DNA from: Escherichia coli
GTDB taxonomy: Bacteria; Pseudomonadota; Gammaproteobacteria; Enterobacterales; Enterobacteriaceae
Direction: 5' to 3' (one strand)
Assembly (NCBI RefSeq): GCF_003334785.1
Contig: NZ_QOWV01000021.1
DNA length: 60,030 nucleotides
Shown here: positions 58,035-60,030 of the stretch, piece after piece
Numbering within the stretch: position 1 is the stretch's first letter
Layout of the letters: every line of letters begins with the position of its first letter
The notes under the pieces: model-generated
Told to the model about the DNA's origin: nothing
The model's input: the letters and a program-made list of their open reading frames with translations, nothing else
The model's database searches: none
Program-made: the position numbers and the translations under genes

Positions 58035-58725
58035 CTTGTAAAGCCTTTATCGTTTTTTTATGCTCTGGATTAATATAATCACTACATCTATCTGAGCAAT
58101 CTGTTGTTGATGGACATGTCAACCCATGGTCATTTACAGCCAAGTCTTTTTTATTATCTTCAATCATTTCAGAATGGGATAGCTTTACTTTTCTGCCGTA
58201 CATACCGAACAGATTTAACCCGTAATCTCTAATCTCTTTTTCATAACCCAGCCCTTTCGCCGATCGGCTAACACCAGCGTCATTTAATTTAGACACTCGA
58301 CAAAATGCCATACAATGGAAAAATTGATCAGTCCCACCTAAATTTAATCTCTTCATATCTTCATAAGTATCAGATAATATATCCCATGCTCTTTGATGGT
58401 TTAGTTGATCTTTTCTTCTTATTAGCGCTACATCTGCGGGACTTAACCCTAATGGATCAATACCATTCACCGGATTCAGCGGATACGCATACAGACTCCA
58501 TCCCCCCTCCAGCCCTATCGGGTCCTGAGTGATATACCGCCCCTGCAACGGATCGTAGTACCGGTTCCGGTTGTAGTACAGCCCCGACTCCTTATCATAC
58601 TGCTGCCCCGGCAGCCGGTACGGCTGGTGCAGGTGATGCGGGTTCTCTTCATTCAGCTGGTTGCCCCACTCATCATACTCCCCGCTCCACGCAATGTTTC
58701 CATCCGCATCCATCAGCGCCAGCAT
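58015..58725 (-). CDS. orphan Rhs fragment: about 94 aa of Rhs core end (ending IDPLGL) plus a 142 aa variable C-terminal toxin domain
   Basis: N-terminal part near-identical to the rhsD core end; DPxGL demarcation motif; divergent AT-rich C-terminus; ATG overlaps ybbC stop (TAATG). Confidence 0.8.
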
Positions 58726-59093
58726 TATTTACTATGTAGGAAATTCAAAACACATCCATTTTTCTTATTAATTTCTATAATAAATACACCACCCGCAACT
58801 TCATAAGGTAACTTTGCTCCCTCAACAACCCAACTATCTGGTAGTTCCGTAATTAAATATGGTTTTTCTTCTTCTGCAATCCGTTCGCCATAGCGATACC
58901 TAACATATATTTCAGCTAATTGTATCGCCATTGTTTCAGTTTTTACCGTATTTTTAACAGAGTATTTATCTAAATGTAATTTTTCCACATACCTCATAAA
59001 AATAATGTTTTCATCAGAACCGTAAACAGCTGTCTCATTACAGGCAAATAGTATAAAAAATGAAAGCATCGAAAATATTGAACTATATTTCAT
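58725..59093 (-). CDS. ybbC: RhsD-associated immunity protein, predicted lipoprotein
   Basis: 122 aa; signal peptide with lipobox (ILFAC); immediately downstream of the rhsD toxin end. Confidence 0.8.
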
Positions 59094-59132
59094 TGAATCT
59101 CCTTATAGGCCCCACTAATAAAAGCACTAAAA

Positions 59133-60030
59133 TTAATCATGATACGGTATGCATACTGAACTCAATCCCGGGACACTATTTCTGATAAAAATATATTCTC
59201 CTTTATTATTAAGCGTCTCAAATCGTCCATCAGGTGTTGCGAGATAAAATGCTTCAAGATTATTATCTTTACTTCTTACAAGATTTTTATCGCTACTTGA
59301 AAAAAATTCATCAACATAATCGCCATGACTATCTGCACCGTGAGTATGATAAGCAGCAACTCTATCTGTACCTGTGGGACATTTTCTTTTCAGAGGATAT
59401 GACTCCTTTCTTAAATTATCAGTTTCTGCCTTAGATGCAAAATATTTTCCATTAGTATCTTTACAGACAATACCAGAGTATTCCATATCATTACATAGAG
59501 ATCTATTCTGCGTTTCTTTCAAAGCATCTAACGCAGCATCTGCAGTACTATCAAATTTACTTGGTCCTATTATACGTGAAAGAACACCACAAACTCCCCC
59601 CGTACATGCTCCAGATCTGGCATCATCCCAAGTCTGCAATAATCCCATAGGGTCAATTTGTTGTAGTGGATTTAAAGGATACTGATATAAATTCCATCCC
59701 CCTTTCAACCCCATCGGGTCCTGAGTAATATACCGCCCCTGCAACGGATCGTAGTACCGGTGACGGTTATAGTACAGCCCTGATTCCTCATCATGCTGCT
59801 GCCCTGGCAGACGGTACGGCTGATACACATGATGCGGGTTCTCCTCATTAAGCTGGTTGCCCCATTCATCATATTCCGCGCTCCACGCCGTATTGCCGTC
59901 TTCGCTGATAAGCGCCAGCGGCAGTCCCCGGTGGTCGCAGTGATAAAGATGAGCTTTTCGCGCCGGTGTGTATTCCGGCTCCACCTGTCTGGCCAGTTGC
60001 TCCACCGTCAGCCCGCACTGCGCAAGCCAC
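59133..60030 (-). CDS. rhsD: Rhs protein, 3' part only (core end with DPMGL motif + 168 aa C-terminal toxin domain); 5' end lies beyond the window
   Basis: Conserved Rhs core end ([16 protein letters not shown]...[10 protein letters not shown]) followed by a divergent AT-rich C-terminal domain; reading frame still open at the window edge. Confidence 0.85.

Follow-up and report, generated by a model that had tools for sequence, protein, structure and literature searches.

A repeated Rhs core end in the rhsD-ybbC-ylbH-ybbD locus of Escherichia coli as the probable footprint of C-terminal displacement

Rhs tips are weapons between competing bacteria, and repeats of the core end are handles for tip swaps. 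The window analysed here, a 60,030-nt stretch of Escherichia coli DNA, carried such a repeat near its end: the 3' end of the rhsD core was found a second time behind ybbC, at the head of an orphan tip module. The first-pass annotation had read the two copies as a substrate for toxin-cassette switching. The question raised by the locus was therefore whether the repeat is a switch in use or the trace of a past exchange. The feature proved to be the known Rhs orphan and displacement architecture at an annotated K-12 locus, real but ordinary, and the locus is more likely the scar of a tip acquisition than an actively used switch.

Genes of the locus and extent of the repeat

The locus was identified as the annotated E. 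coli K-12 rhsD-ybbC-ylbH-ybbD array (99.9-100% identity). Its features are given below in window coordinates; MEPS denotes the minimal efficient processing segment, the least length of identical sequence at which recombination is efficient.

59133..60030, minus strand: 3' part of rhsD, cut by the window end at 60030, with the last 898 nt present
59640..59919, minus strand: repeat copy 1, end of the rhsD core (Rhs-associated core domain), from the repeat search and translation
59133..59639, minus strand: C-terminal toxin tip of RhsD, 168 aa, DUF4329 (Pfam PF14220, E = 8.4e-38)
58725..59093, minus strand: ybbC, 122 aa, presumed immunity gene for the DUF4329 tip (PF15631 Imm-NTF2-2, E = 6.8e-26)
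58444..58723, minus strand: repeat copy 2, core-end fragment heading the orphan module (TIGR03696 Rhs_assc_core, E = 3.3e-24)
58693..58723, minus strand: opening 31 nt of the orphan, with 61% identity to rhsD and every sampled full-length allele, seen only directly behind ybbC
58634..58647 (= 59830-59843), minus strand: 14-nt identical block GAGAACCCGCATCA, interval in which array and matching fused ('empty-site') alleles change over
58532..58565 (= 59728-59761), minus strand: 34-nt identical block, the sole stretch of MEPS length and the junction zone with different displaced tips in other contigs
58015..58725, minus strand: orphan rhs ORF ylbH, 236 aa (RefSeq: RHS repeat-associated core domain protein missing N-terminus)
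58015..58443, minus strand: orphan toxin tip CT_O, 142 aa, no confident family (weak Pfam SAA match, E = 1.3e-3)
57544..58034, minus strand: ybbD, partner gene of the orphan tip, frameshifted (NCBIfam NF011298 positions 1-85 and 99-163)
57774-58034, minus strand: ybbD ORF of 86 aa (the 'YbbD_head' part), from the ORF list
57544-57741, minus strand: ybbD ORF of 65 aa, from the ORF list

The locus follows the standard Rhs layout of core, DPxGL boundary, variable tip and immunity gene, and then a displaced orphan tip. In K-12, rhsD comprised 4,281 nt, and the part of the gene in the window was 99.9-100% identical to loci annotated as 'rhs element protein RhsD'. The full-length rhs gene with its YD-repeat core upstream was recognised via the identical K-12 locus. 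In both translations, the core ended with a PxxxxDPxGL motif that was followed by a variable, A+T-rich tip. At DPxGL, the G+C content dropped in both copies, from 54-57% on the core side to 36-37% on the tip side, tips and small genes together spanning 31-37%; the rhsD tip held 36% G+C vs 54% in the core part. The main and the orphan module both comprised a predicted toxin tip and then a small putative immunity gene, DUF4329 with Imm-NTF2-2 in one case and the orphan tip with ybbD in the other. YbbC was assigned to the NTF2-fold immunity proteins by Pfam and annotated as a member of the YbbC/YhhH family.

The orphan lacked the N-terminal core, kept a core-end fragment in the same orientation and carried a tip distinct from that of rhsD. 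Its head covered positions 1169-1261 of the 1261 positions of the RHS_core model, which are the last 93. The orphan ATG at 58725-58723 overlapped the ybbC stop codon TAA at 58727-58725, forming TAATG. The ybbD gene was split by a frameshift in a T-run at about 57790-57795, and an alignment showed it intact with 163 aa in other strains. The orphan of this window thus had no intact cognate immunity gene, with ybbD reduced to 86 + 65 aa.

The repeat search returned a single long family. It was a direct repeat of 280 nt at 58444-58723 and 59640-59919, 80% identical, with both copies on the minus strand and a start-to-start spacing of 1196. A gapless comparison showed agreement between the copies at 224/280 positions, compared with a chance level of 70.5 ± 7.9 of 280 (maximum 106) for the copy at 58444-58723 at unrelated window offsets on either strand. 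With BLASTN, copy against copy, the central 212 nt were aligned at 86.8% identity (E = 5e-66). Identity was distributed unevenly, with 19/31 at 58693-58723, 184/212 at 58481-58692 and 21/37 at 58444-58480. The longest perfect run was the 34-nt block, and the next three runs comprised 14 nt each. The edges of the repeat were sharp, the flanking 100 nt past either end being 20-24% identical. Its upstream edge lay 2 nt past the ybbC stop codon and its downstream edge was the DPxGL motif.

These data bore out the first-pass annotation in its description of a same-strand direct repeat of the rhsD core end at the orphan head, and the coordinates it had given (59640..59925 and 58444..58725) were right within 6 nt. 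Its placing of the start of homology exactly at the ybbC stop codon was right within 2 nt, the similarity beginning at 58723. It had also named similarity confined to the protein level as the finding that would speak against it; the pairwise alignment located the similarity at the nucleotide level. The geometry was as described, since the copies were direct repeats in the same frame and an exchange between them would excise 1,196 bp, comprising the DUF4329 tip and ybbC, and leave the ylbH toxin attached to the rhsD core.

Each copy codes for the Rhs-associated core domain as far as the DPxGL motif, and a core-end segment of this kind is present on every Rhs toxin tip. The TIGR03696 and RHS_core matches of the orphan head exclude copies without kinship to Rhs core ends. 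On the protein level, 75/94 residues were identical between the copies. Mismatches were distributed over the three codon positions as 17/8/34, and 24 synonymous codon differences were counted vs 19 non-synonymous ones. The core end of rhsB, located elsewhere on the chromosome, showed 84.8% identity to that of the orphan over 223 nt. The orphan core end was thus as close to the distant rhsB as to the adjacent rhsD, suggesting general conservation of the family and not a local duplication.

Array and fused states in E. coli genomes

The array as in this window was present in 1,767/5,426 complete E. coli genomes (33%). A full-length Rhs core joined straight to a ylbH-type tip at the same locus was found in 964-991 of the 5,426 genomes (about 18%). 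The strain comparison proposed with the first-pass annotation thereby yielded an alternative rhsD C-terminus, and this was the predicted fusion. Fused genomes matched in two pieces, with a record span of 1,434-1,438 nt vs the 2,631-nt array query, and this difference in span equals the 1,196-bp spacing of the copies. The fused state was carried by O157:H7 and O111:H8, among others, at ybbP...ylbG/mnmH. In O157:H7 86-24, the locus read ybbP-rhs(core + ylbH-type tip)-ybbD-ylbG-mnmH-allS, with an rhs of 4,197 nt. The tip displaced in the window was therefore attached to a core at the orthologous locus in other strains, which is what a displacement model expects. In the ~435-600 nt junction region, identities were 89-100% for fused alleles vs about 97.5-100% for array copies, the fused alleles being more diverse.

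The changeover was read in 12 alleles of about 960-990 fused genomes. These twelve were aligned with the two copies of the window, and seven of them also with the copies from four further arrays. The first roughly 22-31 nt of the orphan were absent from all aligned fused alleles, and downstream of 58633 the aligned fused alleles were all orphan-like. All sampled array-matching fused alleles changed over between 58668 and 58634. One group comprised tcmA_3, PER07-33, O111:H8 8E, LR-25, AMSCJX02 and MFDS1016424. It matched the rhsD copy perfectly as far as the equivalent of 58648, save for one private T, and from 58633 it matched the orphan copy perfectly, save for a 9-nt deletion in MFDS1016424 and single differences in O111:H8 8E. 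The difference between this group and the array was exactly the 1,196-bp unit, with the changeover within GAGAACCCGCATCA (58647-58634). The 9-nt deletion was common to F1053 and MFDS1016424.

The private T, at the equivalent of 59904, was common to the matching fused alleles and absent from five/five sampled arrays. The O157 allele differed from the tcmA_3 group at three further sites, of which two were polymorphic in the rhsD copy of an array, so that a second junction is not established. Other core-end sequences were found in EE72d/O166/FDAARGOS_1280 and in ECO2947, which were orphan-like only close to the tip. At five private sites in 58615-58573, bases were shared by the orphan copy and the matching fused alleles alone; the rhsD copy agreed there with EE72d and ECO2947, two other attached-allele types. 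Recombinants with a junction in the 34-nt block, or at any point from 58633 to the tip, were absent from the 5,426 genomes, and the best full-length match, at 96.3%, was the tcmA_3 group. A chimeric DNA query returned no full-length E. coli gene with the first 31 nt of the orphan (best match 96.6%). Among 120 protein matches, the MDADGN motif occurred only in proteins starting with it, and the protein search gave only proteins of up to 413 aa, so that it bears little on full-length genes.

The DUF4329-ybbC cassette also occurred elsewhere. Contigs L021 and L022, both taken from public assemblies, held the same DUF4329 tip, the 122-aa YbbC and the leader with 99.3% and 98.6% identity to the window, respectively. 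L021 followed the orphan of the window down to 58556 and then continued into a different toxin tip, for which complete E. coli genomes gave no match. L022 followed the orphan down to 58541, apart from a 9-nt deletion, and then continued into another toxin tip. This tip was the attached tip of a full-length rhs at an rhsE-type locus (near pptA-yddH-nhoA) in E. coli 600468. A three-way alignment placed the L022 crossover in the interval 58572-58541, overlapping the 34-nt block. The same leader was kept in three different orphan contexts, and a transferable cassette ahead of different resident tips, as a displacement model expects, was thus observed in L021 and L022. Since the cassette stood ahead of at least three different tips and the L022 crossover overlapped the 34-nt block, this conserved block was considered a real exchange point.

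P0004, an orphan with the same leader, carried a variant core end, and in its genome a run of N (assembly gap) lay just upstream. The rhsB-yhhH pair was considered as a recent donor of the rhsD tip and rejected, its nucleotide identity being merely 73-75%.

Comparison with described Rhs systems

The C-terminal displacement model, with homologous exchange of tips and dissociated 'orphan' tips, was described by Jackson et al. 2009 (PMC2935791). The locus resembles the published cases in its full-length rhs followed by a partial core end in the same orientation, a different A+T-rich tip and its own small gene. It also resembles them in that the same tip was attached to the core at the same locus in other strains and that tips were apparently exchanged via core homology. 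Differences were observed as well. [quoted passage not shown] The core fragments of the window were 80% identical, whereas the paper has E. coli core regions always identical within a locus and reports Serratia fragments that nearly match the rhs core next to them (91.6% amino-acid identity). A circular intermediate is proposed in PMC2935791. The structure of the present locus fits circle integration and the double crossover of linear DNA equally well.

Recombination between a main rhs gene and an rhs-CT-orphan was reported for Salmonella Typhimurium LT2 by Koskiniemi et al. 2014 (PMC3967940). The LT2 locus has the same order of a main rhs, an immunity gene, an orphan with a core-end repeat and the orphan's own immunity gene, and recombination at the repeat results in a full-length Rhs with the orphan toxin and in deletion of the main immunity gene. 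The repeat, however, comprises 522 bp at 95% identity in LT2, compared with 280 bp at 80% and one 34-nt perfect block here, so that the window did not contain the long near-identical direct repeat shared by main gene and orphan in that system. Recombinants were detected experimentally in LT2, where they arose after a duplication of the locus, whereas the evidence for the present locus was comparative and ambiguous in direction. Furthermore, the partner gene of the orphan was frameshifted in this window.

Orphan cdiA-CT/cdiI and rhs-CT/rhsI modules were treated by Poole et al. 2011 (PMC3150448), who described displaced toxin/immunity pairs, located downstream of the main gene, that retain part of the conserved region upstream of the toxin domain. 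The names rhsD, ybbC and ylbH had 0 occurrences in PMC3150448. The present locus is a specific instance of these orphan modules and not a new kind. According to a review (PMC8918686), up to about 30 identical bases are required before recombination in bacteria can begin, and its frequency falls exponentially with divergence, RecA recombination being roughly 10^4-fold lower at about 20%.

No new question is opened by this locus, as the class of mechanism dates from a 2009 proposal and its demonstration in Salmonella followed in 2014. Its value is descriptive. It provides a natural pair of states of a single E. coli locus, the array in 33% and the fusion in 18% of complete genomes, exchange intervals mapped to the nucleotide, and one DUF4329-YbbC cassette ahead of several displaced tips.

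Displacement and competing readings

The repeat is the conserved 3' end of the Rhs core, and the arrangement is most plausibly the footprint of C-terminal displacement at this locus. An incoming cassette, running from a core end through the DUF4329 tip and ybbC to a short leader, would have entered by core-end homology into an rhsD-type gene that then ended in a ylbH-type tip. The resident ylbH-type tip would thereby have been pushed downstream, keeping its own core-end fragment. A reverse deletion between the copies would recreate the O157/O111-type allele; with 80% identity and a single 34-nt perfect block, such a deletion should be rare.

We infer, rather than observe, both which way the historical event ran and by which pathway recombination proceeded, as insertion and deletion at one point leave identical structures. 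The matching fused alleles may go back to one old deletion or represent the empty site in its ancestral form. From the alignments, the private T, the ybbD frameshift, the shared 9-nt deletion and the private sites in 58615-58573 each appear either as compatible with insertion as with deletion or prone to recurrence. The private sites in 58615-58573 fit O157/O111-type alleles as secondary array deletions equally well. The 14-nt changeover block is shorter than a MEPS and unexpected for RecA-mediated exchange in either direction.

Active switching as proposed by the first-pass annotation would imply that recombination between the copies recurs in populations, removing ybbC along with the DUF4329 tip and giving the full-length Rhs the orphan toxin, and that the O157/O111-type alleles arose by this reaction. 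We regard this as unlikely. About 18% of genomes did carry the predicted product at this locus, one allele group was the array minus exactly 1,196 bp, and the mechanism is established by experiment in Salmonella LT2 (PMC3967940). Fused alleles also carried, at 58633-58566, a haplotype that travels with the ybbC module elsewhere. A ybbD frameshift in the same T-run was common to K-12 and O157, a lesion that a silent orphan would tolerate more readily; T-run frameshifts recur easily, however, which makes the shared lesion weak evidence. Against these observations stand the low identity and short length of the repeat relative to LT2, and the private T in all matching fused alleles, suggesting one origin. 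The array-like fused alleles had a lone changeover zone (58668-58634), and no junction in the 34-nt block was found in 5,426 genomes. One changeover zone in 5,426 genomes, read in the 12 aligned alleles, and nothing at the sole block of MEPS length argue against frequent switching. The proposed switching substrate thus kept its geometry and a natural product; its identity was poor, the direction was undecided, there was no sign of recurrence, ybbD was frameshifted and the similarity was not specific to this pair. In this strain, the repeat is a weak switching substrate.

Purifying selection on the conserved core end of two unrelated adjacent pieces, with no role for recombination, would explain the excess of mismatches at third codon positions, the surplus of synonymous over non-synonymous codon differences and the equal similarity of the orphan to rhsB and rhsD. 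The junction mapping contradicts this, as junctions between states or tips fell inside the repeat (58647-58634 and 58572-58541) rather than outside, and the copy spacing matched the length difference between the locus states; we consider such an explanation very improbable. A further explanation, in our view improbable, is that the orphan persists because it has its own function, as a 236-aa protein whose translation is TAATG-coupled to ybbC and which forms a toxin-antitoxin-like pair with ybbD, the core-end fragment serving mainly as an N-terminal leader. The overlap of its ATG with the ybbC stop codon and the conservation of the leader in three orphan contexts are consistent with this, as is the listing of rhsD-ybbC-ylbH as an operon in a promoter survey (PMC3946193). 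In Salmonella, a full-length rhs and its adjacent orphan are reported in PMC7043789 to act as type II toxin-antitoxin modules. However, ybbD was frameshifted here and RefSeq treats the orphan as a pseudogene. A promoter and terminator scan of 57400-60030 gave counts level with shuffles (11 promoter-like sites vs 9.2 ± 3.2), which gives this reading no support.

The displacement reading can be extended to a discrete cassette that has moved repeatedly, a possibility that we put forward tentatively and would not favour. DUF4329-YbbC and a leader of ~160-180 nt (58723 to about 58545) would form this cassette, which would have been placed ahead of at least three resident tips, in rhsD- and rhsE-type genes, with its right-hand crossover always at the 34-nt block. 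The O157/O111-type alleles would then be secondary excisions at the 14-nt microhomology and not ancestral.

Delivery of either toxin is doubtful in K-12, which we take to be without a type VI secretion system. A recombinant arising in this strain would lose ybbC and carry the frameshifted ybbD.

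Core-end deletion and locus states

An in-frame deletion of 9 nt, by which the residues PYR are lost from the core end, was present in both states of the locus. It was found in the orphan copy of the array in E. coli F1053 (locus L012) and in the fused allele of MFDS1016424 (L017), in which the full-length Rhs core is joined directly to the ylbH-type tip. The deleted position is equivalent to about 58616-58624 of the window. Its occurrence in an array orphan as well as in a fused allele suggests that alleles of the different locus states have been exchanged or share a common ancestor. 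Apparently the same deletion was carried by the orphan of L022, a locus on an ENA contig (ERZ27229669, 1-2554).

Locus-state counts may be slightly off, since the repeat probably disrupts assembly of the rhsD locus in some records. In CP062933.1 (L019), deposited as a 'complete' genome, a run of N upstream of position 3001 was located exactly at the expected place of the rhsD tip and ybbC.

DUF4329-ybbC module ahead of a different tip

The ENA contig L022 held the same DUF4329-ybbC module as the window, ahead of a different tip. Elsewhere, this tip was attached to an rhs gene at an rhsE-type locus in the pptA-yddH-nhoA neighbourhood (L023, E. coli 600468). This suggests that the DUF4329-ybbC cassette is not restricted to rhsD.

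Orphan toxin tip, ybbD and ylbG

The sole Pfam signal in the orphan tip (58015-58443) was weak: residues 111-201 matched the Serum amyloid A family with an E-value of 1.3e-3. Two further genes of the region were considered:

57544-58034, minus strand: ybbD, present as two ORFs of 86 aa and 65 aa
56622-57029, plus strand: ylbG, a 135-aa ORF with a helix-turn-helix

The window ybbD was split into these two ORFs by a 1-nt deletion within a T-run at about 57790-57795. The same lesion was present in ybbD of O157:H7 86-24, despite the attachment of the ylbH-type toxin to a full-length Rhs in that strain. In LR-25 and GF75, ybbD was intact, with 163 aa. ylbG was annotated as a truncated pseudogene in related genomes. 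Some strains carried a copy of IS3 or IS1 between ylbG and the rhs locus.
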